Assembly (NCBI GenBank): GCA_019637315.1 | Contig: JAHBVU010000019.1 | Location: 1,371-65,370, forward strand | Reading direction: 5' to 3' | Length of the DNA stretch: 64,000 nucleotides | Source of the DNA: Gemmatimonadales bacterium | Lineage (GTDB): Bacteria > Gemmatimonadota > Gemmatimonadetes > Gemmatimonadales > GWC2-71-9 | Shown here: positions 3,434-52,635 of the stretch, piece by piece | Position numbering within the stretch: the stretch's first letter is position 1 | Layout of the letters: each line of letters opens with the position of its first letter | Translations under genes and position numbers: made by a program | Notes under the pieces: generated by a model | What the model saw: only the letters and a program-made list of their open reading frames with translations | What the model was told of the DNA's origin: nothing | Database searches by the model: none

Positions 3434-4105
3434 ATGACTACTCGTAACCGTTGCGATGCACGCATCGCCAGCCGCCTTGCCGCCGCCTTCGTGTTCGCGG
3501 CCGCTGCCCTCGCCACCTCGCAGGCCCCTGCCGCCGCACAGATCACCGTCGCCGGCGGCTACACCTATATGCCTGGCCGGATCGGCGATGCCCGGTCGGA
3601 GCACGGCCCGACGCTCCGTCTGGACTTGCGCCTCGTCTCCAACCGGTGGGCCCGGCTGTCGGTGGAGGGTAGCGTCGATCGACTGAATCAATCGCGGATC
3701 CAGGGCGGCAACGACGCGTGCCTGCTGCCTGGCAACGTGGTCGGGCGGTGCAACCTGGATATTCGGAATCGCGATCTGGTGCTGACCGGGGCAGTCGTGA
3801 CTCGGTTCGGTCCGCAGGGGTCGGGCGTCAATCCGTATCTGCTCGTCGGCGCCGGGGTCACCTCCGTGCGGACCAAGCTGGATCAGGTCGGGACCGATAA
3901 CGCGGGCAACGTGCTGCCCAACTTTACCGTCTCGGGCACCTCTACCGATGGCGGCCTCGTGGCCCCGCTCGGCGCAGGCGTGGCCATTCCATGGGGTGGT
4001 CGGGCCTTCACGATCGAGGCACGGGCTACCCCGATCCTCCACAACTACTCGGGCGGGCCCCAGTTCAACGTGATCCCCAGCCTGACGGTCGGGTTGCGGT
4101 TCTGA
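3434..4105 (+). CDS. Outer-membrane beta-barrel protein (porin-family-like)
   Basis: Signal peptide ...AAALATSQAPAAAQ, alternating beta-strand pattern and a terminal aromatic residue (...LTVGLRF). I chose the start at ATG 3434. Confidence 0.6.
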   Translation: MTTRNRCDARIASRLAAAFVFAAAALATSQAPAAAQITVAGGYTYMPGRIGDARSEHGPTLRLDLRLVSNRWARLSVEGSVDRLNQSRIQGGNDACLLPGNVVGRCNLDIRNRDLVLTGAVVTRFGPQGSGVNPYLLVGAGVTSVRTKLDQVGTDNAGNVLPNFTVSGTSTDGGLVAPLGAGVAIPWGGRAFTIEARATPILHNYSGGPQFNVIPSLTVGLRF

Positions 4106-29756: not shown

Positions 29757-31274
29757 CTATCGTTTGCGGAGCTCCAGATACGAAGCAACCGAGAAGAAGA
29801 GCGGATCGATGCCGGTCTGGGCGCTGGCCTGACCGCGTAGAACGCCATTGACGAGACGCAGGTCGAAGGCGACGGTATGGGACACCCAATCGACGTCGGG
29901 TGTCGGAATGGTGCCGGCAAAACGGCCGCTCAGGACGCCGTCACGGTAGCTTGGCATGTTGACCAGGGCGCGGAGCTGTTTGCGAAGCAAAGGGTCATCG
30001 CCTGGACGCATCGCCTCGCCGATCTGGGTCTGCATTTCGCCTGATGACCGGACTTCCAGCTCGAAGGGAAGGGTTCTGGTCCAGGTACGCAGCGTGCCGG
30101 TCCAGGTGCCGACCAGCTCGGCCGGTGGCGCGAATGCGGCTGGCGCGGGCGTCGGTCGGGGCCGGGCGCGCTCCGCTTTGAGCGAATCGGCGTAGCCGGG
30201 CAGGATGACGGCAGCCGCCTCGCTCAGGACGTCGCCGAACGGTGCGGCCGACGCGTTGGTCAGCACCACGATGACGGCGTTGGCTTCCGGATAGAGGTGG
30301 AGGATGGTGCTGACTCCAGGCATCCCGCCGCTGTGCTGAACCAGCCGGTGTCCGCGATCCTGACCGACGACCCATCCCAGGCTGTAGTGCGAACCAAAGG
30401 CCGGTGTCTCCGGGCGCTGCATCTCGTCGATTCGCGATGCAGGCAGAATGGCCCGCTGCTCGGCTAGCTTGTTCTTGAGGTGGAACATGCCGAAGCGCAC
30501 CAGGTCGTGCGCGCTGGAGTAGACGGCCGACCCGCCCGGATGATCGAAGGTGTAGAACGGCACCGGTTTGCCTCTCCAGTACCGCTCGGCGACATAGGGC
30601 TCGAGTCCGGGGGCGATATCGATCGAAGTCCGGGTCAGTCCCAACGGCAGGAAGACTTCGTTCCGCATGAAATCGGCGTAGGTGCGGCCGGACACCCGGC
30701 TGATGATATCGTCCAGAATCCCGTAGCCAAGGTTCGAGTACTGGAAGGTCTCGCCAGGTGCGGAGACCAGGATGCCGTAGCGACCGACGGTTTCATCCAT
30801 CGAAGGGCGGCGGCGGGTTGCCTCGTTGTCGTAAAAGAACTGGTAGTGAAGAGGCAGGCCCGAGGTGTGCGCCAGGATTCGTCGGACCGTGGCACCCGAG
30901 GCATCGCCGGCCAGACCGGTAATCTTACCGAAGCCGAGGTAGTCGTTGGCGGGCCGATCGAGATCCACCTGACCGCGGTCGACGAGAAGCATCAGGCCGG
31001 TGGCCGTGATCGGCTTGGAGATCGAGGCCAGCGAGAACATGGTGTGCTCGGTGGCCGGGATGAGTTTTTCTCGGTTGGCCCAACCGAAACCCTCCTCCCA
31101 GACGATCTTGCCGTCTTTGGCAACGGCAACCGCAACGGCGGCGACACCGCGCTCGACGACCAGGCGGTTGGCGGCTTCGCGCACGGGTTGCCAGCGATCG
31201 GGGCGCGGTGAACTTTGGGCGCCGATCAGGGTCGGCGTCAGGGCAAGGAGGATCAGGCCAAACGATCGTCGCAT
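29757..31274 (-). CDS. Serine hydrolase, beta-lactamase/PBP-like
   Basis: Signal peptide and SxxK motif (ASISKPIT). 505 aa. Confidence 0.85.
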   Translation of the reverse strand: MRRSFGLILLALTPTLIGAQSSPRPDRWQPVREAANRLVVERGVAAVAVAVAKDGKIVWEEGFGWANREKLIPATEHTMFSLASISKPITATGLMLLVDRGQVDLDRPANDYLGFGKITGLAGDASGATVRRILAHTSGLPLHYQFFYDNEATRRRPSMDETVGRYGILVSAPGETFQYSNLGYGILDDIISRVSGRTYADFMRNEVFLPLGLTRTSIDIAPGLEPYVAERYWRGKPVPFYTFDHPGGSAVYSSAHDLVRFGMFHLKNKLAEQRAILPASRIDEMQRPETPAFGSHYSLGWVVGQDRGHRLVQHSGGMPGVSTILHLYPEANAVIVVLTNASAAPFGDVLSEAAAVILPGYADSLKAERARPRPTPAPAAFAPPAELVGTWTGTLRTWTRTLPFELEVRSSGEMQTQIGEAMRPGDDPLLRKQLRALVNMPSYRDGVLSGRFAGTIPTPDVDWVSHTVAFDLRLVNGVLRGQASAQTGIDPLFFSVASYLELRKR

Positions 31275-31378
31275 CGTCGCGGCTCACGGTGGAGATGTGG
31301 ACTGGTGTTGCGGTTGGGATCCTGCAAGTTATCGTCATGCCCCGATCCGGCGCGAGGTGTGGGGACCCTCGAGCCACT

Positions 31379-31407
31379 TTACAATCTCGAGGTCTCCAGA
31401 TTATCGT
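31379..31407 (+). promoter_or_regulatory. Candidate sigma70-like promoter TTACAA-17-TATCGT for the Cys-leader / dsbD-N / tlpA unit
   Basis: Hexamers read directly in a locally AT-richer stretch. The predicted TSS is near 31414. Confidence 0.35.
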
Positions 31408-31442
31408 CCTCCCTCGACACTACTGATGTTCGGAGTTTGCTG

Positions 31443-31514
31443 ATGCCGCTGGTCCGCGCCACTGTCGCCTGTTGTTGTCCCCTCGAATCCGGGTGGGGCG
31501 GCGCGCGGCTATAG
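31443..31514 (+). CDS. Candidate leader peptide MPLVRATVACCCPLESGWGGARL (23 codons, three consecutive TGT Cys codons)
   Basis: ATG with GGAG 7 nt upstream. TGT TGT TGT lies at 31470-31478. The sequence was confirmed from ORF-track frame 31215..31514. A terminator lies downstream. Confidence 0.45.
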   Translation: MPLVRATVACCCPLESGWGGARL

Positions 31515-31559
31515 CAGCATAGTCTATCGCGCCACGGCGGCGCGCAGTCAGATCGCTTC

Positions 31560-31595
31560 CGGCCCACCCTGTTCACGGGTGGGCCGTTTTCGTTG
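31560..31595 (+). terminator. Intrinsic terminator inside a 5' leader (attenuator candidate)
   Basis: CGGCCCACCC-tgttcac-GGGTGGGCCG followed by TTTTCGTTG. It sits 60 nt upstream of the dsbD-N-like start codon, with no gene ending before it on this strand apart from the mini-ORF. Confidence 0.75.
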
Positions 31596-31656
31596 TGGCC
31601 TGCCCGAGACCTGACTTGTCAGTGGACGGTCGTACCTCGGCGTAAGGAAGGAACCA

Positions 31657-32130
31657 ATGCAGGTCTCATTGAAGCTGGTTATCTGGTTGTCCGTGCTCGC
31701 GGTGTCGAGCGCTCAGGCGCAGGGCCCTGATCCGGTTCGCTGGTCGGTGGCAATCGTGCCGACGCGTGGGGGCACCCCGGACGTGGTCACCCTTGCGGTG
31801 ACGGCGTCGATCGAACCTGGCTGGAAGGTGTATTCGCTGACCCAGACATCGGGCGGGCCCTATCCCCTGCGGATCGCGCCGGGCGGCGAGTCGGTCGTGC
31901 TGGCGGGCGCCGTCACGGGTCCGACGCCGATCGTTCAGGAAACATCGGCATTCGGTATTCCGGTCGAGGTCTATGGCGGCGAGCCCCGATTCGTGGTGCC
32001 AGTTCGGGTTGGCTCAGGAGGATCGAAGGCCGGGGCCGAACTGCGCGTCCGCTACCAGGCCTGCACCGAGACCACCTGCCTGCCGCCCCGGACCGCCACC
32101 CTCGTTGCGCAGCTGCCAGGAGCCCGGTGA
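31657..32130 (+). CDS. DsbD N-terminal (alpha) domain-like thiol-disulfide protein, secreted
   Basis: Signal peptide and the C-terminal motif RVRYQACTETTCLPP (YQxC...C.PP typical of DsbD_N-like domains). AAGGAAGGA SD. Confidence 0.7.
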   Translation: MQVSLKLVIWLSVLAVSSAQAQGPDPVRWSVAIVPTRGGTPDVVTLAVTASIEPGWKVYSLTQTSGGPYPLRIAPGGESVVLAGAVTGPTPIVQETSAFGIPVEVYGGEPRFVVPVRVGSGGSKAGAELRVRYQACTETTCLPPRTATLVAQLPGAR

Positions 32131-33350
32131 TGCTGGAACTGAGCAGTCTCGCGCGTGGGTGGGTTGCCATCGGGCTGCTGACTCTTGGCTCGGCAGGTCT
32201 CGCGGCGCAGGAGCCCAGCGGCCGCTGGACCGGCACGATCAGCTATGACTCGTTGCGCATCGACTTTCCGCTCGAATGGGCCGTCGAGTCGGGGCGCCAG
32301 CTGGTTCGGCTCTACAACGGCGACCTGCCGGTGACCTCGACGGCAGTGCATCGGCAGGGCGACTCCGTCGTGGTCGAGTTTGCCCACCTGGCCACGAGGT
32401 TCGAAGGCGTGCTCGAGGGCGGCGCCTTCCGGGGTCGCTATGGCAACGAGCGGCGCGGTTACCATCCGGTCGAGGCGGCGCCGACCCTCGAGGCGGCACG
32501 ATTCGCAGCCGGGGCCCCTCGGATCGACGGAGAGTGGTACCTGCCGGTCGAAACCGCCAAGGGCGAGCGCGCCTGGCGTTTCGTGGTACGGCAGGACGGA
32601 TCGCAGCTGTCCGCGACGATCCTCCGGGTGGACGGCGATGCCGGAGCTCTCACGGGCGGCTGGACGGGGTCCAGGTTCGTGCTCAGCCATTTCGCCGGAA
32701 CCCGTCCGGCGCGGCTCGAGATCGATCCGCAGTCGGATGGCACGCTCCGGCTGACGCTTCATGCGCCGCGGGGAGCGCCCCGAAGCTTCGAGGCGATCCG
32801 ACCCGAGCTGGCCCGTGCCCGGGGGCTCCCCGAGCCCGCCGACGTCGCGACGCACACCAGGGTTCGCGATCCGAAAGAGCCGTTCACCTTTGCGTTTCCC
32901 GATCTCGACGGTCGGCTGGTCACGGAGCGGGACGCCCGCTTTGTCGGCAAGGTCATCGTGGTGAATGTCACCGGCAGCTGGTGCCCCAACTGCCACGACG
33001 AGGCGCCCTTCCTGGCCGATCTCTACCGGCGCTATCGGGACCGGGGGCTCGAGGTCGTCGCCCTGGACTTCGAAGAAGCGGAGGAACTGGAGGATCTCAG
33101 CCGGCTGCGCGCGTTCGTCGCCAGGTATGGCATCGAGTACCCGTACCTCGTGGCGGGCGAGCCCGGCGAGGTCGCTGCCAAGCTGCCGCAGGCCGTCAAC
33201 CTGAACACCTGGCCCGCCACCTTCTTCATCAACCGGGAAGGCCGGGTTCACGCGGTGCGAAGCGGCTTTGCCGCCAAAGCCAGCGGGTCGTATCACGACG
33301 CGCTGGTGCGGGAGTACATCGCCATCGTGGAGGGTCTGCTCGACCAGTAA
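32127..33350 (+). CDS. TlpA/ResA-family thioredoxin-fold thiol-disulfide oxidoreductase with a long N-terminal domain
   Basis: ATGA overlap with the upstream gene. CxxC motif VNVTGSWCPNCHDEAPFL in the C-terminal ~140 aa. Confidence 0.8.
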   Translation: MMLELSSLARGWVAIGLLTLGSAGLAAQEPSGRWTGTISYDSLRIDFPLEWAVESGRQLVRLYNGDLPVTSTAVHRQGDSVVVEFAHLATRFEGVLEGGAFRGRYGNERRGYHPVEAAPTLEAARFAAGAPRIDGEWYLPVETAKGERAWRFVVRQDGSQLSATILRVDGDAGALTGGWTGSRFVLSHFAGTRPARLEIDPQSDGTLRLTLHAPRGAPRSFEAIRPELARARGLPEPADVATHTRVRDPKEPFTFAFPDLDGRLVTERDARFVGKVIVVNVTGSWCPNCHDEAPFLADLYRRYRDRGLEVVALDFEEAEELEDLSRLRAFVARYGIEYPYLVAGEPGEVAAKLPQAVNLNTWPATFFINREGRVHAVRSGFAAKASGSYHDALVREYIAIVEGLLDQ

Positions 33351-33355
33351 GACTG

Positions 33356-33426
33356 GGCGCCGTGGCCAAGTGGTAAGGCAAGGGTCTGCAAAACCCTGAT
33401 CACCGGTTCGATTCCGGTCGGCGCCT
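33356..33426 (+). tRNA. tRNA-Cys: tRNA-Cys (anticodon GCA)
   Basis: Cloverleaf folded by hand. Acceptor GGCGCCG/CGGCGCC, anticodon stem AGGGT/ACCCT with loop CTGCAAA, T arm ACCGG-TTCGATT-CCGGT, discriminator U. CCA is not encoded. It starts 6 nt after the tlpA-like stop codon. Confidence 0.9.
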
Positions 33427-46734: not shown

Positions 46735-46950
46735 CGACGGTGGTTCCTCACAATGGTAAGGGAGGGAACGGCTTCTCGAGGGAACCTAGGTGCGCCCGGG
46801 TCTCCGAATCAACGGGATTCGGTGCCCCGGCTGCGCCGGAAGGTGCCAGCTTTCTCGAGATCGGAGTGTCTAAGCGATTGAGATGCAATGTGTTGACGCC
46901 TCCCCTCGCGTGGAACTCTGAGAGCCGCATCGCGCTTGGGTCCGGCGGCG

Positions 46951-46977
46951 CCGATCGGTCCGATCGGTCGGATTGGT
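46951..46977. repeat. Three tandem 9-bp units CCGATCGGT CCGATCGGT CGGATTGGT (each perfect unit contains the palindrome CCGATCGG)
   Basis: Read directly and anchored on ORF frame 46740. It lies in the 335-bp divergent intergenic region. Confidence 0.7.
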
Positions 46978-47069
46978 CCCTGGGGAGCGTGACCGTTAGG
47001 TTTGCCTTCCGCGCGTTCGCCCGCGGTGCGGGCGCACCCGAGGTCTTCACACGAACATGGTAGAGCGCA

Positions 47070-47669
47070 ATGGCTATCGATCCAGCCGACCTGCTTGCTC
47101 TGATGCGAGCCCGTCGCAGTCACAAAATGCCCTTCCTGAAGCCCGATCCCGTCGACGCCTCGCTGGTCGAGCAGGTGCTCGAGGCGGCCCGCTGGGCGCC
47201 GAGTCACGGCAAGACGGAACCATGGCACTTCACCGTCTATTCCGGCGAAGGCCGCCGCGGGCTCGGGGATGCCTTTGCTGAAGCATATCGGATCCAGGCC
47301 GAAGCCAAGGGGACCTACACTCAGGAGGCGTTCGAGACCAGTCGCGACAAGGTCTGGAAGGTGCCGGTGTGGATTGCCCTGACGCTCAAGCCCGGGGTCA
47401 AGCCTGACGGGTCGTTCGTGATGCCCGAATGGGAAGAACTCCTGGCGTTTGGCGGAGCGGTCCAGAACCTTCACCTGGCGGCGACGGCACTCGGTCTGTC
47501 GGGTCAGTGGTCGACTGGTGCGCAGGCCGTGCTGCCCCATGTCGCGGAGTTCGTTGGTGTGCCTGCGCCGTCTCGGCCCCTTGGATTCTTTCTGCTCGGC
47601 TATCCCGGCAACGTACCTCCGGATGTGGGCCGCCGTCCGCTCAGCGACAAGGTGACCTGGCGCAGCTGA
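47070..47669 (+). CDS. Nitroreductase family protein
   Basis: 199 aa. RRSHKMPF...VLEAARWAPSHGKTEPWHF is the typical nitroreductase N-terminus. Confidence 0.85.
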   Translation: MAIDPADLLALMRARRSHKMPFLKPDPVDASLVEQVLEAARWAPSHGKTEPWHFTVYSGEGRRGLGDAFAEAYRIQAEAKGTYTQEAFETSRDKVWKVPVWIALTLKPGVKPDGSFVMPEWEELLAFGGAVQNLHLAATALGLSGQWSTGAQAVLPHVAEFVGVPAPSRPLGFFLLGYPGNVPPDVGRRPLSDKVTWRS

Positions 47670-47688
47670 AACACTGAGACGAGGGAGG

Positions 47689-49203
47689 GTGCTCATGCGG
47701 TGGCAGATCGGACTGGCGCTGGCGTTGACGTTGAGTTGGGTTGCCTCGCTTTCGGCGCAGCGATCGGCCGGATCGCGGCCGGCCGGGCCGTTCGCGGCGC
47801 TGGACCGGTACGTACCCGCGGCACTGGCAGCCTGGGACGTGCCGGGCGCCGCGATTGCGATCGTACGCAACGACTCGATCGTCTACATCAAGGGGTTTGG
47901 CGTCCGGGAACTCGGCCTGCCGGCGCCAGTCGATTCTGCCACACTGTTCGCCATCGGCTCCAACACCAAAGCGTTTACGGCCACTGCCGCTGCGATGCTG
48001 GTGACCGATGGCAGGATGGCCTGGGACACGCCGCTGACAGCCTACCTGCCGGGTTTTGCGGTTGCTGATCCCTATGCGACCCGGCAGATCACGCTGCGGG
48101 ACGCCTTGGCGCACCGGACCGGTCTGGCTCGCTACGAGTCGGTCTGGTACGGCACCGGTTACTCGCGCGAAGACCTGCTGGCCCGCCTCCGTTACGCGGA
48201 GATGGAGGGTGGCCTGCGCAGCGGCTTCGGATACAACAACCTGGCGTACCTTGCCGCCGGTGCGGCTATCGGCGCGGCTGCGGGGAGCAGTTGGGACGCT
48301 GTCATCGCCGAGCGGATTCTCACACCACTCGGCATGGCGTCGACCAGTCCGGTCGGGGCTCCGCTGGAGCAGCCGGGCAATGTGGCGGCGCCGCACCAGC
48401 GCATCGGCCCCACCGTGCGCAAAGTCCCGGTGCGAAACATCGACAATGTTGCTCCGGCGGGCGCGATCGTCTCGAACGTGCTGGACATGGCGCAGTGGCT
48501 GCGCTTTCAGCTCGCCAATGGCAGCTATCGCGGCCAGCGGCTCGTGAGTGAGGATGCCCTGCGGGCCACCCGCTCCGCGCAGGTGGTGATGGGTGGCCCG
48601 GTGCCCGGTGAACCGTATCAGCCGTTGATCTCCGCGTACGGCCTCGGATGGGTGGTGTCGGAGTATGCCGGTCAGTCGCTCGTCTGGCACAACGGCGGGA
48701 TCGATGGCTTCATGGCTGAGGTGCGTCTGCTGCCGGGCCAGAACGCCGGGTGGGTGCTGCTGACGAACAGCTATGGCACCAACCTGATGCCGGCAATTTC
48801 GTATCGGATTGCCGACCTCCTGCTCGGGCGTCCGGCCCGCGACTGGAGTGCGGAGATGCTGGCTGCGCAGAGAGCGAGGCCGGTTCGAGCGCCGCAGGAG
48901 GCAAACATGGTCACCGGCGCCGTGCCGCTCCTGCCGCTCGAGCGCTACGCCGGTCGATACACCGACCCGCTCTTCGGCGAGGTGACGGTGGAGCTGCGCG
49001 GCGACCGTTTGCGGCTCGGGTACGGGCCCAACTTCTCGGGGCCGCTCGATCACTCGCTGATCCACACCTTCCGGGTATCCTGGGAGGGCCAGACCGCCGT
49101 TACGCTGCCCGGGGCAAGCGTCACTTTCGGGGTGGATGCCGCGGCGAGGCCGATCGATGTCACGATCAGCGGGCTGACGACCTTTCGTCGGGTCCGGCCG
49201 TAG
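47689..49203 (+). CDS. Serine hydrolase, beta-lactamase/PBP-like with a DUF3471-like C-terminal domain (paralog of 20665..22182)
   Basis: SxxK motif (GSNTKAFT) and the same architecture and C-terminal GRYTDPLFGEVTVELRGDRL module as the 20665 gene. Confidence 0.85.
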   Translation: MLMRWQIGLALALTLSWVASLSAQRSAGSRPAGPFAALDRYVPAALAAWDVPGAAIAIVRNDSIVYIKGFGVRELGLPAPVDSATLFAIGSNTKAFTATAAAMLVTDGRMAWDTPLTAYLPGFAVADPYATRQITLRDALAHRTGLARYESVWYGTGYSREDLLARLRYAEMEGGLRSGFGYNNLAYLAAGAAIGAAAGSSWDAVIAERILTPLGMASTSPVGAPLEQPGNVAAPHQRIGPTVRKVPVRNIDNVAPAGAIVSNVLDMAQWLRFQLANGSYRGQRLVSEDALRATRSAQVVMGGPVPGEPYQPLISAYGLGWVVSEYAGQSLVWHNGGIDGFMAEVRLLPGQNAGWVLLTNSYGTNLMPAISYRIADLLLGRPARDWSAEMLAAQRARPVRAPQEANMVTGAVPLLPLERYAGRYTDPLFGEVTVELRGDRLRLGYGPNFSGPLDHSLIHTFRVSWEGQTAVTLPGASVTFGVDAAARPIDVTISGLTTFRRVRP

Positions 49204-49228
49204 AGCTTGGAGCATGAGCGGCTCACCG

Positions 49229-49257
49229 TTGACCCTGGTGGGTCGGTCGCTTAGAGT
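49229..49257 (+). promoter_or_regulatory. Sigma70-like promoter TTGACC-17-TAGAGT placing the TSS at the ATG of the poly-Cys mini-ORF
   Basis: Hexamers at 49229-49234 and 49252-49257, verified against the antisense ORF translation. The ATG lies 6 nt after the -10. Confidence 0.5.
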
Positions 49258-49263
49258 CCCTGG

Positions 49264-49359
49264 ATGCAGCTGGTTCACTCCGTGACCCCCGCAGTACCCC
49301 CTGTGTGCCTCTCCCGCCTCGTCGGGACGGGTCACCAGGACTGTTGTTGTTGCCGCTAA
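49264..49359 (+). CDS. Candidate leaderless leader peptide MQLVHSVTPAVPPVCLSRLVGTGHQDCCCCR (31 codons)
   Basis: ATG at the predicted TSS. TGT TGT TGT TGC at 49342-49353, then CGC TAA. Confirmed via the antisense ORF (..SLAATTTV..). Confidence 0.45.
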   Translation: MQLVHSVTPAVPPVCLSRLVGTGHQDCCCCR

Positions 49360-49420
49360 AGACGTCCCAGGCGTCGTCCGAAGTTCGTCGTTCGTCAATT
49401 CAATAATCGAGGCAGGTCTT

Positions 49421-50410
49421 ATGTCGTTTCCATCGGGGACACTTCCCGTTGCGGTGTACTATGAGCACCCGGACTGGTTCAAGCCGCTTTTTGCCGAGCT
49501 CGATCGGCGCGGGATTCCCTGGGTTGCCCTGGATGCTGCGGCGCACGAGTACGATCCGGCCGACCTGACGCGCCACTATTCGCTGGTCGTCAACCGCAAC
49601 AGCCCGTCGGCCTATCTCCGGGCCCATGGTCAGGCCACGTTCCATACTCTCAACTGGCTTCGTCACGTCGAGCGTACTGGCACTCCGGTCGTCAACGGCT
49701 CGGCGGTCTATGGGCTCGAGATCTCGAAAGCGTTCCAGGTCGAGGTCCTTTCCGAGCTCGGCCTGCCGGTGCCGCGTGCACTCGTCATCAATCATGCCTC
49801 CCGGGCAGCCTCGGCAGCACAACGGTTGCGGTATCCGGTGGTCGTCAAGGCCAATATCGGCGGCAGCGGCGCGGGAATCGTCCGTTTCGATTCCGAAGCC
49901 CAATTGACCGAGGCCGTCGCGGCCGGCCGGATCGATCTCGGTGTCGATGGGACTGCCCTGGTTCAGGAACTGGCTCCACTGTCCGGGGGGCGGATTACCA
50001 GAGTCGAGGTCCTCGACGGCAAGTTCCTCTATGCCATCAACGTCTATCCGACTGGAGAGTCGTTCAACCTCTGCCCGGCCGACATCTGCCAGACGACGGA
50101 AGGGCGGGCGCTGGATCGCACCTTCTGCGCAGCAGACGCACCCAGGACCGGGATGCGGGTCGAGCGGGCGGATCCTCCCGCTCACATCATCGCGCAGGTC
50201 GAGAGGATCGCCCGTCATGTGCATCTCGATATCGGCGGCATCGAGTATCTGGTCGATGAGCGCGACGGTGAGCACTACTTCTACGATATCAATGCACTGT
50301 CGAATTTCGTTGCCGACGCCCCGAACGTGATCGGGTTCGACCCGTTTGCCCGCTTCGTGGATTATCTCGAAGTGCGAGCGGGTCTGGTCGCACGGGCTCT
50401 GGGTGCCTGA
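49421..50410 (+). CDS. ATP-grasp domain protein (RimK/GshB-like ligase)
   Basis: 329 aa. GAGG SD 8 nt upstream. ATP-grasp pattern (YPVVVKANIGGSGAGIVRF..., GGIEYLVDERDGEHYFYDINALSNF). Confidence 0.8.
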   Translation: MSFPSGTLPVAVYYEHPDWFKPLFAELDRRGIPWVALDAAAHEYDPADLTRHYSLVVNRNSPSAYLRAHGQATFHTLNWLRHVERTGTPVVNGSAVYGLEISKAFQVEVLSELGLPVPRALVINHASRAASAAQRLRYPVVVKANIGGSGAGIVRFDSEAQLTEAVAAGRIDLGVDGTALVQELAPLSGGRITRVEVLDGKFLYAINVYPTGESFNLCPADICQTTEGRALDRTFCAADAPRTGMRVERADPPAHIIAQVERIARHVHLDIGGIEYLVDERDGEHYFYDINALSNFVADAPNVIGFDPFARFVDYLEVRAGLVARALGA

Positions 50411-50412
50411 CG

Positions 50413-51462
50413 ATGCGTTTCGGATACTGGTTGCCGGTGTTCGGCGGGTGGCTTCGCAACGTTCCGGATGAGGGCATGGATGCGTCGTGGAGCTATGTCA
50501 GCCGCCTCGCGCGCCGCAGCGAAGAGATCGGCTTCGATCTGACGCTGATTGCCGAGTTGTTCCTCAACGATATCAAGGGTGTGAACGCTCCCTCGCTCGA
50601 CGCCTGGTCCACTGCGGCAGCGCTGGCGGCAGTTACGCAGCGGCTCGAGCTGATGGTTGCCGTGCGGCCGACCTTTCACCAGCCGGCCATCCTGGCCAAG
50701 CAGGCAGCCGCGATCGATCACATCTCCGGAGGCCGGCTGGCCCTCAACGTGGTCTCCTCGTGGTGGGCGGACGAGGCGCGACGGTACGGGGTGCGATTCG
50801 ATCAGCACGACGACCGATACGCCCGCACCGCGGAGTGGCTGGCGGTGGTCGACGGGGTCTGGCGAGAGCCCGAGTTCTCCTTCGACGGTACCTACTATCA
50901 GGTCGAGGGAACGATTCTCGAACCCAAGCCGGTGCGCCGGCCTCGACCGCCGATCTATGCCGGCGGCGAGTCGTCGGCGGCGAAGCGTCTGATCAGCCAG
51001 CAGTGCGATGCGTATGTGATGCACGGCGACCCGATTGAGGTGGTCTCAGCCCGGATCGGTGAGTTGTCCGCGCTGAGAGAGGCAGCAGGGCTGCCGCGGC
51101 TGTCCTTCGGCATGGCCGCCTATGCTATCGTGCGCGATACCGAGCAGGAGGCGGCCCGGGAGCTGGAGCGAATCACCAACGTCACTCCGGGCTCGCCCGG
51201 GTACGGCAACTATCGCGACTGGATCGCCAATACCCAGCTCGAGCGTCAGGTGTCGCTGCAGGATTACTCGGTATCCAACCGGGGGCTGCGGGCGGGCTTG
51301 ATCGGCACGCCGGAGCAGGTGGCGGAGCGGATTGCGGCCTTCGAAGCCGCAGGAGTCGACCTTCTGCTGTTACAATTCAGTCCGCAGGCAGAGGAGATGG
51401 AGCGCTTTGCCGACCAGGTCATCGGTCGGCTCAGCGCGACCCCCGCCGGGGGTGGTGCCTGA
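50413..51462 (+). CDS. LLM-class flavin-dependent monooxygenase (SsuD/SfnG/RutA-like group)
   Basis: 349 aa. Starts 2 nt after the ATP-grasp stop. Motifs AKQAAAIDHISGGRLALNVVSSWW and DDRYARTAEWL. Confidence 0.85.
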   Translation: MRFGYWLPVFGGWLRNVPDEGMDASWSYVSRLARRSEEIGFDLTLIAELFLNDIKGVNAPSLDAWSTAAALAAVTQRLELMVAVRPTFHQPAILAKQAAAIDHISGGRLALNVVSSWWADEARRYGVRFDQHDDRYARTAEWLAVVDGVWREPEFSFDGTYYQVEGTILEPKPVRRPRPPIYAGGESSAAKRLISQQCDAYVMHGDPIEVVSARIGELSALREAAGLPRLSFGMAAYAIVRDTEQEAARELERITNVTPGSPGYGNYRDWIANTQLERQVSLQDYSVSNRGLRAGLIGTPEQVAERIAAFEAAGVDLLLLQFSPQAEEMERFADQVIGRLSATPAGGGA

Positions 51463-51537
51463 CCATGGGTCGGGCCGCCGCGATGATGCGGCGGCCTGAT
51501 CCCCATGGGCCGAACGTCGTCCTAACCCAGCCCATAG

Positions 51538-52635
<1,098 letters not shown>

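Follow-up and report, generated by a model that had tools for sequence, protein, structure and literature searches.

A leaderless poly-cysteine reading frame as a putative cysteine sensor upstream of an ATP-grasp/monooxygenase operon in Gemmatimonadales

The leader region and its operon

The 64,000-nucleotide stretch of Gemmatimonadales DNA analyzed here (contig JAHBVU010000019.1; hereafter the window) carries on its forward strand a short open reading frame (sORF; 49264–49359) that ends in a run of cysteine codons and precedes the genes for an ATP-grasp ligase, an FMNH2-dependent luciferase-like monooxygenase (LLM) and an old-yellow-enzyme (OYE) flavoprotein. The sORF comprises 31 codons, reads MQLVHSVTPAVPPVCLSRLVGTGHQDCCCCR up to its stop, and was delineated from its reading frame and its conservation at two closely related loci, L001 and L161. 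Its putative stall site, TGT TGT TGT TGC (49342–49353, +), is followed by a single Arg codon (CGC), the Cys run ending 3 nt ahead of the UAA stop. Such a run of four Cys codons occurs only once across the six frames of the window, for which we estimate from base composition a chance expectation of about 0.07 per window. The other CCC runs in the window (1981, 9454, 59170 and 61736 on the plus strand; 45575 and 19588 on the minus strand) are tiny or lie out of frame within long ORFs and are probably due to chance, the only further run judged real being that at 31470, which is treated below.

A sigma-70-type promoter (49229–49257, +), made up of TTGACC (49229–49234), a 17-nt spacer and TAGAGT (49252–49257), ends 6 nt upstream of the ATG, and transcription is accordingly predicted to start at or next to A49264, that is, to yield a leaderless mRNA. 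This is the only promoter-like site that our promoter scan returns from 49100–49600, with an expectation of 0.0 from shuffled sequences. No Shine-Dalgarno (SD) sequence precedes the ATG, and an in-frame TAG within the −10 box makes the ATG at 49264 the earliest possible start in that frame. The initial annotation held that several bona fide genes of the window share this geometry; it is present at 49264 itself, but a strict scan of the window finds 49229–49264 only, and a relaxed scan shows no peak in promoter-to-start distance. The promoter, spacer included, is 90–93% identical among the window, L001 and L161. We also note that its 17-nt spacer (49235–49251) is near-invariant in these three (CTGGTsGGnCGGTCGC) and contains GGTC repeats and a GACC..GGTC inverted repeat; a further regulatory protein might use this spacer as an operator.

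Between the sORF and the ATP-grasp gene lies a 61-nt spacer (49360–49420, +) that holds the GAGG SD of the latter (49409–49412). A terminator scan finds no intrinsic terminator in 49100–49600, as the initial annotation had stated, nor in the leaders of L001 and L161; all coordinates given there for promoter, sORF, Cys run, SD, spacer and the three genes are likewise correct. Rfam returns no match at E ≤ 1 in 49150–49470, and no S-adenosylmethionine (SAM)-II riboswitch is found anywhere in the window by Rfam search. Two local structures are predicted. A GC-rich hairpin within the sORF, directly 5′ of the Cys run (49300–49339, +), is predicted for the window and L001 in both the minimum free energy (MFE) and the centroid fold, and for L161 as well; the top and base of its stem are invariant and its middle varies without clean covariation, and it holds the sequence that had initially been regarded as an anti-SD. 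It could serve as a pause or structural element. We considered whether this hairpin, together with the U-rich Cys codons, acts as a weak terminator or pause, but its tail is poor (ACUGUUGUUGUUG), and it was dropped as a regulatory step because termination there would be independent of the reading of the Cys codons. The second hairpin, GACGU-CCCAG-GCGUC (49361–49375, +), starts 2 nt past the stop codon, is kept in the three species through one-sided changes (A-U to G-U, U-G to U-A) and would be covered by a ribosome positioned on the Cys run or at the stop; since no T-run follows it, it is not a terminator.

The first structural gene (49421–50410, +) encodes a RimK/GshB-like ATP-grasp ligase, assigned by family matches that are all weak to characterized enzymes. 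At least 8000 homologues at E ≤ 1e-20 are present among the matches listed, the best of which come from metagenome-assembled genomes (MAGs) of Gemmatimonadales. The LLM gene (50413–51462, +; PF00296, 210 bits) follows after 2 nt. Its product was initially likened to the SsuD/SfnG/RutA group, and SfnG and SsuD are indeed its nearest families (258 bits against the SfnG model TIGR04021, 173 bits for SsuD), whereas RutA lies well behind (78 bits). The SfnG score falls below the equivalog cutoff of 383, and among Protein Data Bank entries the LLM is closer to the uncharacterized 3rao (428 bits) and 8vw6 (366 bits) than to structures of SfnG (8t0u, 182 bits) or SsuD; on these two grounds we place it, by sequence, in a distinct subfamily of the C–S-cleaving FMNH2 monooxygenase group. 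The OYE gene (51541–52635, +; NamA/YqjM-like by family matches) begins 78 nt further on. The gap contains a perfect 9-bp GC hairpin, GGCCGCCGC-gatgat-GCGGCGGCC (51472–51497, +), which has no T-run and is negative in the terminator scan; it could be an element of mRNA processing or stability, or a partial barrier to transcription. Of the first 80 orthologous loci, drawn from Gemmatimonadota, Acidobacteriota, Bacteroidota, Myxococcota, Planctomycetota and Armatimonadota, about 75 have the ATP-grasp and LLM genes side by side. Because the OYE gene follows the LLM gene only in the clade of the window, L001 and L161, and because the genes 3′ of the LLM are heterogeneous among the orthologous loci, with no third operon gene conserved, we regard the pair, on gene order, as a two-gene module. 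No functional assignment was found in the literature for this gene pair or for entries 3rao and 8vw6.

Cysteine-codon leaders and SAM-II riboswitches in relatives

We compared 166 loci that carry an orthologous ATP-grasp/LLM pair: 80 from species genomes, 80 from metagenome contigs and 6 from close relatives. The last of these came through exact-protein look-ups, a metagenome scan for closer relatives having returned nothing above 73% identity. The initial annotation had proposed looking for a Cys-run sORF upstream of orthologous operons, and such leaders prove to be conserved across several phyla. Under a fixed rule, a Cys/Met-rich sORF stands directly upstream of the ATP-grasp gene in 91 of the approximately 160 assessable loci, giving 82 distinct peptides from Gemmatimonadota, Vicinamibacterales, Blastocatellia and Pontibacter. 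The peptides, each with its own start and stop, are hypervariable except for Cys and Met, as can be seen from VNNAPASLMCTMCMCHLMWHQPQGTGDAHV (L060), MTRPNSTMMCCCCMCPQAHGGAGARAS (L019) and MPRMLMCCWTDLPTERS (L015), the opening of the Vicinamibacterales leader L072 (VFAVQTCACCCCGDQ) and the ends of L133 (CACLCCCRPTNERTDVYVT) and of the Pontibacter leader L074 (TYCCCCCC). At least four Cys codons in an eight-codon window occur upstream at 10 of 81 loci in the sense direction and at 0 of 81 in the antisense direction, against a mean of 0.47 for shuffled sequences, and 54 of the 72 matches to a combined Cys-sORF and strong-terminator pattern in 2.4 Mb fall within 450 nt before an ATP-grasp gene. 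A start 4–10 nt past a TTGACx-N16–18-TAnnnT promoter is found for 38 of the 82 leaders, the start being the best of a few candidates per sORF, as compared with 0.34% of random ATG/GTG positions; on the strength of this difference we take leaderless geometry to be a conserved trait of the leader family.

Codon usage in the leaders is skewed as well. TGT makes up 62% of the Cys codons in 52 orthologous leaders but 21% in the adjacent ATP-grasp and LLM genes (Fisher p = 4e-21), and the window's own genes contain four TGT and nine TGC codons. This bias fits selection for slow, wobble-decoded sensor codons. Leaders of Gemmatimonadaceae (L008, L019, L039, L047, L052, L060, L066, L068, L098 and L102) alternate Met and Cys codons (MCxMCMC), an interleaving that suggests a dual Met/Cys sensor. 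Met accounts for 7.6% of residues in Gemmatimonadaceae leaders versus 3.2% in those of Acidobacteriota type, an enrichment that is partly circular as the selection rule favored Met. At three loci (L147, 1746–1832; L150 and L151, 1662–1814) a Cys sORF with a strong terminator lies some 600–700 nt upstream of the ATP-grasp gene, the interval perhaps holding an additional gene or a longer leader. Four others (L013, L023, L026 and L050) show a third type of upstream sequence about 60–200 nt before the ATP-grasp gene (..ggggaatcta..gcgagaattc..gcggaactttc..gccttga..), with neither Cys sORF nor SAM-II, which might be a protein operator or an RNA element.

Most of these leaders are followed by the means for transcription attenuation. 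A strong terminator, consisting of a GC hairpin and a T-run with a ΔG of −15 to −33 kcal/mol, lies 15–70 nt beyond 65 of the 82 distinct leaders. In all 15 leaders that were modeled, including the one at 31443 of the window described below, the 5′ arm of this terminator has an alternative partner within the sORF, a segment that lies 17–35 nt 3′ of the Cys cluster. With a ribosome stalled on the Cys/Met codons this segment would stay free and the antiterminator could form, while a ribosome that reaches the stop would cover it, and the terminator would form. The modeled leaders of the relatives are therefore probably classical attenuators that turn the operon on when Cys-tRNA, and probably also Met-tRNA, is scarce.

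The window, L001 and L161, whose ATP-grasp proteins are 91% (L001) and 90% (L161) identical to that of the window, depart from this arrangement. They alone end in CCC(C)R(R) directly before the stop, have a spacer of 58–61 nt and lack a terminator; the leaders of L001 and L161 read MLVVRRSITPAVLPGCASRLVGSGHQGCCCCR and MLVVRRSPIPAVPPVCVPRVVGMGHQGCCCRR, respectively. A 3-nt indel among the three leaders is in frame, so that reading frame and stop position are kept, and the three codon positions have changed to a similar extent (7/32, 9/32 and 8/31), a lack of bias from which we conclude that the peptide itself is not the selected product. The region 49229–49420 is 79–80% identical among the three species (sORF 77–84%, spacer 74–79%), as compared with 45–56% at 4-fold degenerate sites of the flanking genes, and identity drops to 40–57% just 5′ of the −35 box; the comparison with neighboring 4-fold sites indicates purifying selection on the leader of this clade. 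The next relatives, L162 (81% ATP-grasp identity; MRTSTCMAMCSCCRPMMSGDGRAHGRGDRG), L165 (77%; MRKTTRWMSCCCCRHRMGFGGGRWDRGARG) and L002 (77%; MTSPSPVMALCCCCRPMSSGDGHAYGTGDPG), combine leaderless geometry and a CCCC/CSCC-R motif with a terminator. In a MAFFT alignment the Cys runs of both types coincide and the window type is about 95 nt shorter than L002, L162 and L165, the absent nucleotides being those that make up the end of the sORF, the antiterminator and the terminator's 5′ arm. Judged from this alignment, the window copy is a derived form from which terminator and antiterminator were lost in this lineage. A poly-Cys sORF whose run adjoins the stop also occurs in Pontibacter rufus (L069) and P. 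toksunensis KCTC 23984 (L074), with the ends HCCFC and YCCCCCC, respectively. Here a Bacteroidetes-type TATAAATT box lies 7–8 nt ahead of the ATG, and the leaders stand some 215–360 nt upstream of position 4001 of their loci, with a long spacer that contains no strong terminator. As Pontibacter has this design, and as it was predicted and shown to work in Actinobacteria, its independent origin in both argues for a recurrent, terminator-less, C-terminal poly-Cys arrangement rather than for simple decay.

In many Gemmatimonadaceae that have no Cys sORF, the place directly upstream of the ATP-grasp/LLM operon is taken by a SAM-II riboswitch (RF00521) and a terminator. The RF00521 gathering score is passed at this position in 5 of 15 loci scanned (L016, 2591–2665; L018, 1056–1127; L046, 3823–3898; L056, 3809–3880; L067, 3856–3932), and the SAM-II core motif is found there in at least 23 loci. 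SAM-II and the Cys/Met leader thus appear to replace one another over evolution. Since, depending on the species, either a SAM sensor or a Cys/Met-codon sensor would control it, the ATP-grasp/LLM module can be placed in sulfur amino-acid metabolism.

The window holds a second Cys leader (31378–31597, +), composed of a promoter (TTTACA-18-TATCGT, 31378–31407), a GGAG SD (31432–31435) 7 nt upstream of the ATG, a sORF reading MPLVRATVACCCPLESGWGGARL with three TGT codons (31443–31514) and an intrinsic terminator found by the terminator scan (31560–31586), which is followed by TTTTCGTT. All are on the plus strand, as are the genes downstream, a DsbD_N gene (31657–32130) and a gene for an AhpC/TSA-thioredoxin-like redoxin (32127–33350). 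An antiterminator is predicted to form between GGGUGGG in the tail of the sORF and the terminator's 5′ arm, and leader and terminator are kept in L167 (from the same MAG as L161) and L168; a leader of this type is absent from the distant DsbD_N loci examined. Modeled in this way, the element at 31443 is a textbook Cys attenuator, and the genome, by sequence, uses Cys-codon leaders at two or more loci, in line with the idea of a “ribulon”. A tRNA gene just downstream of the DsbD_N/redoxin operon (33356–33426) is the only gathering-level Rfam match in the window.

Two beta-lactamase-fold paralogues, at 47689–49203 (+) and 29757–31274 (−), each adjoin one of the two Cys-leader operons. The copy at 47689–49203 also has a DUF3471 domain, and in L162 and L163 a beta-lactamase/DUF3471 gene lies within the operon, 33 nt past the LLM gene (5070–6458 in L162). 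It is possible that these proteins are linked to the function of the operon, for instance as hydrolases acting on a pathway substrate. Further upstream, a 199-amino-acid ORF of the nitroreductase family (PF00881; 47070–47669, +), syntenic in L161, encodes a candidate FMN reductase partner of the two-component LLM. The 353-amino-acid antisense ORF that overlaps it (46809–47870, −) has no family match and is probably spurious.

Signal transmission at 49264 and alternative explanations

Taking the comparative evidence together, we consider it probable that the sORF at 49264 is a functional Cys sensor for its operon. It would act as a leaderless leader peptide whose translating ribosome senses charged tRNA-Cys and thereby controls the ATP-grasp/SfnG-like LLM(/OYE) operon. 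The A of the ATG would be the first nucleotide transcribed, and translation by a 70S ribosome would set in at once. With cysteine plentiful, the ribosome would read UGU UGU UGU UGC CGC, terminate and leave, and downstream expression would stay low; with Cys-tRNA scarce, a ribosome and the queue behind it would be parked on the last codons of the sORF, and expression of the operon would rise. This direction of control is the one expected by analogy with the relatives, in which stalling favors the antiterminator and SAM-II switches the operon off. As terminator and antiterminator were lost in this lineage, the signal would not travel via an intrinsic terminator, and folding reveals no ribosome-dependent antiterminator pairing at 49264. 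The most likely route, which we put forward tentatively and with rather low confidence, resembles that of tna: parked ribosomes would shield the RNA near the stop as well as the C-rich 5′ portion of the sORF, and premature termination by Rho, or Rho-dependent polarity, would thereby be prevented. Over its first 78 nt the sORF contains 41% C and 27% G, at the 97th percentile of the window, as compared with 26% C and 26% G in the spacer, and the stall codons adjoin the stop codon as they do in tnaC, a likeness that concerns only the position of the putative stall.

An alternative that follows the initial annotation more closely is translational attenuation of the Ms5788A type, in which an RNA duplex within the leader hides the SD or start of the ATP-grasp gene until ribosome stalling on the Cys run opens the ribosome-binding site (RBS). 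The architecture of Ms5788A is matched at 49264 (leaderless start, C-terminal poly-Cys, no terminator, SD-led downstream gene; 10.1101/834739), and the RBS is enclosed, in the MFE and centroid folds of L001, by a long-range helix between the post-stop segment and codons 5–9 of the ATP-grasp gene; this helix is not reproduced in the window or in L161. The pairings originally pointed out exist in the window, but neither is kept in all three species. The sORF segment CCCGCCTCG (as anti-SD, CCCGCCUCG) is complementary to the SD region CGAGGCAGG at 8 of 9 positions in the window and L001, yet reads CCCGCGTCG in L161 (CCCGCGUCG for the anti-SD), which leaves 7 of 9, and the SD carries no compensating change; the helix between GGGACG and CGTCCC is broken by a U-U mismatch in L001. 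The Cys-tract:peri-SD duplex is, moreover, no better than that of shuffled sequences. Constrained partition function calculations were run on the free RNA and on RNA occupied by ribosomes, either stalled on the first Cys codon or on the last, sitting at the stop or queued along the sORF. RBS pairing is near-constant over these states in the three species, so that the initial suggestion that ribosome position on the mini-ORF alters access to the SD finds no support in a consistent change of RBS accessibility; in the window, a ribosome halted on the first Cys codon would even push SD pairing up, from 0.80 to 1.00 (0.71 to 0.83 in a shorter construct), the wrong direction, as the hairpin of the sORF then sets its 5′ arm free to pair with the SD. 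We therefore regard translational attenuation as unlikely. Somewhat less likely again is that the leader is a vestige, the deletion having taken antiterminator and terminator and left an operon that is constitutive or controlled at its promoter, with a sORF that is translated but regulates nothing. The roughly 95 nt missing relative to L002, L162 and L165, the lack of a detectable structural switch and the loss of one of the four Cys codons in L161 would all suit such a vestige, and the 90–93% conserved −35 to −10 region with its GGTC repeats could, as a protein operator, carry the regulation instead. The sORF and the spacer are, however, conserved far above the neutral level given above, frame and stop are kept across the indel, and the Cys run uses the disfavored TGT, like functional leaders; Pontibacter and Actinobacteria also arrived at this terminator-less design independently, and in the latter it was shown to work (10.1101/834739).

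Two further explanations do away with cysteine sensing by a ribosome altogether, and we give both very little credence. Short ORFs are common in GC-rich DNA, and a single CCCC run has, on our base-composition estimate, a chance of about 7% per window, so that the sORF might be a chance ORF in a 5′ untranslated region whose conserved element is an untranslated RNA or a DNA motif. This is highly improbable in view of the in-frame Cys/Met codons that recur in over 80 seemingly unrelated leaders, all with starts and stops of their own, of their strand and frame specificity, of the synonymous TGT/TGC variation and its bias, of the start codon at the predicted +1 and of the lack of an Rfam match. 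The sORF might also encode a functional Cys-rich micropeptide or the precursor of a peptide made on the ribosome and modified after translation (RiPP), with the ATP-grasp enzyme and the monooxygenase as its modifying enzymes, since some ribosomal peptides (graspetides) are matured by ATP-grasp ligases, the small ORF lies directly before the ATP-grasp and oxygenase genes, and the ligase weakly matches TIGR04187, a model of ATP-grasp RiPP maturases. That match, though, amounts to 32.7 bits against a cutoff of 350; SAM-II takes the place of the sORF at many loci that retain both enzymes, and the peptides are hypervariable save for Cys and Met and show no codon-position bias. Antiterminators furthermore overlap the sORF tails, and a similar sORF precedes the unrelated DsbD_N/redoxin genes. 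On the family score, the replacement by SAM-II, the hypervariability and the even codon positions we rejected this explanation, which we hold to be the least credible of all.

Several points weigh against the sensor function at 49264 that we favor. The terminator-less form is confined to three species, which makes covariation uninformative, and with a background identity of about 79% the survival of a 9–12-nt Cys run in three species is, alone, mildly significant; the fourth Cys codon of L161 is already Arg. The MAFFT alignment fits equally well a mere loss of the terminator by deletion, with de-repression of the operon as the outcome. Whole-leader MFE values are no better than those of shuffled sequences (z = +0.4 to +0.55), and folding of the window, L001 and L161 uncovers no alternative-structure switch. 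As for the Rho route, it is weakly grounded: the spacer is not C-rich, its 61 nt offer little room for Rho to load, and an ordinary SD precedes the ATP-grasp gene. Finally, the entire case is built on sequence, and the organism is known only as a MAG.

Relation to known systems and implications

The closest counterparts of the leader at 49264 are the polycysteine leaderless sORFs of mycobacteria (Ms5788A, Rv2334A; the “Cys ribulon”), which were dissected experimentally in M. smegmatis by Canestrari et al. in 2020 (10.1101/834739). The parallel drawn in the initial annotation is borne out by the leaderless geometry, the conserved leader ORF and the sulfur-related operon. Both kinds share a leaderless start, a short ORF and consecutive Cys codons at its C-terminus (at least two in mycobacteria; four in the window and three to four in L001 and L161), both are the first cistron of a sulfur- or cysteine-related operon without an intrinsic terminator, and mycobacterial genomes, like the window with its two, contain more than one Cys leader each. 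They differ in phylum, the present one being Gemmatimonadota and its leader of independent origin, and in the operon, here ATP-grasp and SfnG-like LLM. The gene context is less different than was first claimed, as it is sulfur amino-acid metabolism in both cases. The second leader of the window, at 31443, is SD-led and uses a terminator, unlike the mycobacterial type. Because thermodynamic predictions do not return, at 49264, the SD-sequestering Cys-tract:peri-SD duplex that defines the mycobacterial mechanism, we describe this leader as one that may work like the mycobacterial class rather than as a member of it.

Candidate Cys leaders were also reported before cys/cbs operons in Mycobacterium, P. 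acnes and B. longum by Seliverstov et al. in 2005 (PMC1262725). These have runs of Cys codons near the stop and no conserved terminator hairpin, as at 49264, and, for lack of an alternative, a tna-like mechanism dependent on Rho was put forward, which holds for our proposal too. They are, however, limited to Actinobacteria and to canonical cysteine biosynthesis genes, whereas relatives of the leader at 49264 possess terminators, the loss of which can be traced along the lineage. The uORFC-8-2 motif upstream of cysS in Rhodobacterales, reported by Brewer et al. in 2021 (PMC8632094), pairs a tandem-Cys upstream ORF with an intrinsic terminator and in this resembles the classical relatives (L002, L162, L060) and the leader at 31443; being alphaproteobacterial, having two Cys codons and preceding an aminoacyl-tRNA synthetase gene, it resembles the leader at 49264 in its regulatory codons alone. 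In trpL, hisL, leuL and thrL the position of the ribosome selects between antiterminator and terminator, and the same is predicted in silico for the relatives and for the leader at 31443. The leader at 49264 shares with these the clustered regulatory codons but not the terminator and antiterminator. Its regulatory amino acid would be Cys, joined by Met in many relatives, and our literature search brought up no leader of this kind for the operon or for the phyla concerned. With tnaC-tnaA of E. coli it would have in common a stall at the end of the leader, the absence of an intrinsic terminator and a parked ribosome that is proposed to deny access to Rho. TnaC, however, senses free tryptophan through its nascent peptide at the stop codon and not tRNA charging, and the tna spacer measures about 220 nt and contains a defined rut site and boxA, as against a spacer of 61 nt and weak signs of a rut site at 49264. 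SAM-II, which shares its position and its terminator with the classical leaders, is a functional analogue, but a metabolite-binding RNA rather than a translated sensor.

Our literature search returned nothing on Cys-codon leaders in Gemmatimonadota, Acidobacteriota or Bacteroidota. With regard to translation starts in the phylum of the window, the table of anti-SD types in one survey lists 22 for Gemmatimonadetes (PMC10783764), a figure that we interpret as low use of SD sequences. While Cys-codon leader peptides as such are known, we regard as new the phyla and the operon, the interleaving of Met and Cys, the UGU bias, the exchange with SAM-II and the observable transition from a terminator-bearing to a terminator-less form. 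All this may be read jointly as an undescribed, multi-phylum class of ribosome-mediated Cys and Met attenuators, with leaders that interleave Met and Cys codons, as in LMCTMCMCHLMW, and prefer wobble-decoded UGU, a class which alternates with SAM-II and controls a new sulfur-salvage step for Cys/Met synthesis, and which was rebuilt in the lineage of the window into a terminator-independent, leaderless, stop-adjacent poly-Cys sensor. We find this joint reading plausible, though not quite probable.

Control by Cys-codon leaders would then extend from Actinobacteria and Rhodobacterales to Gemmatimonadota, Acidobacteriota and Bacteroidota, abundant soil phyla in which gene regulation has hardly been studied by experiment. 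For the ATP-grasp/LLM pair itself, which is widespread, alternate control by leader and SAM-II is a strong regulon-based pointer to the scavenging of sulfur for Cys/Met synthesis. The graded series from classical attenuators in relatives with 77–81% identity to the terminator-less form in the clade with at least 90% identity would constitute a natural experiment on how an attenuator changes its mechanism, and the UGU bias and the Met/Cys interleaving provide testable design rules for amino-acid-sensing leaders. The cultured Pontibacter strains, which have the C-terminal poly-Cys form, make the design amenable to study in the laboratory. If the reading is true, the leader at 49264 would represent a convergence on the mycobacterial “Cys ribulon”, and ribosome-directed regulons would reach well beyond Actinobacteria.

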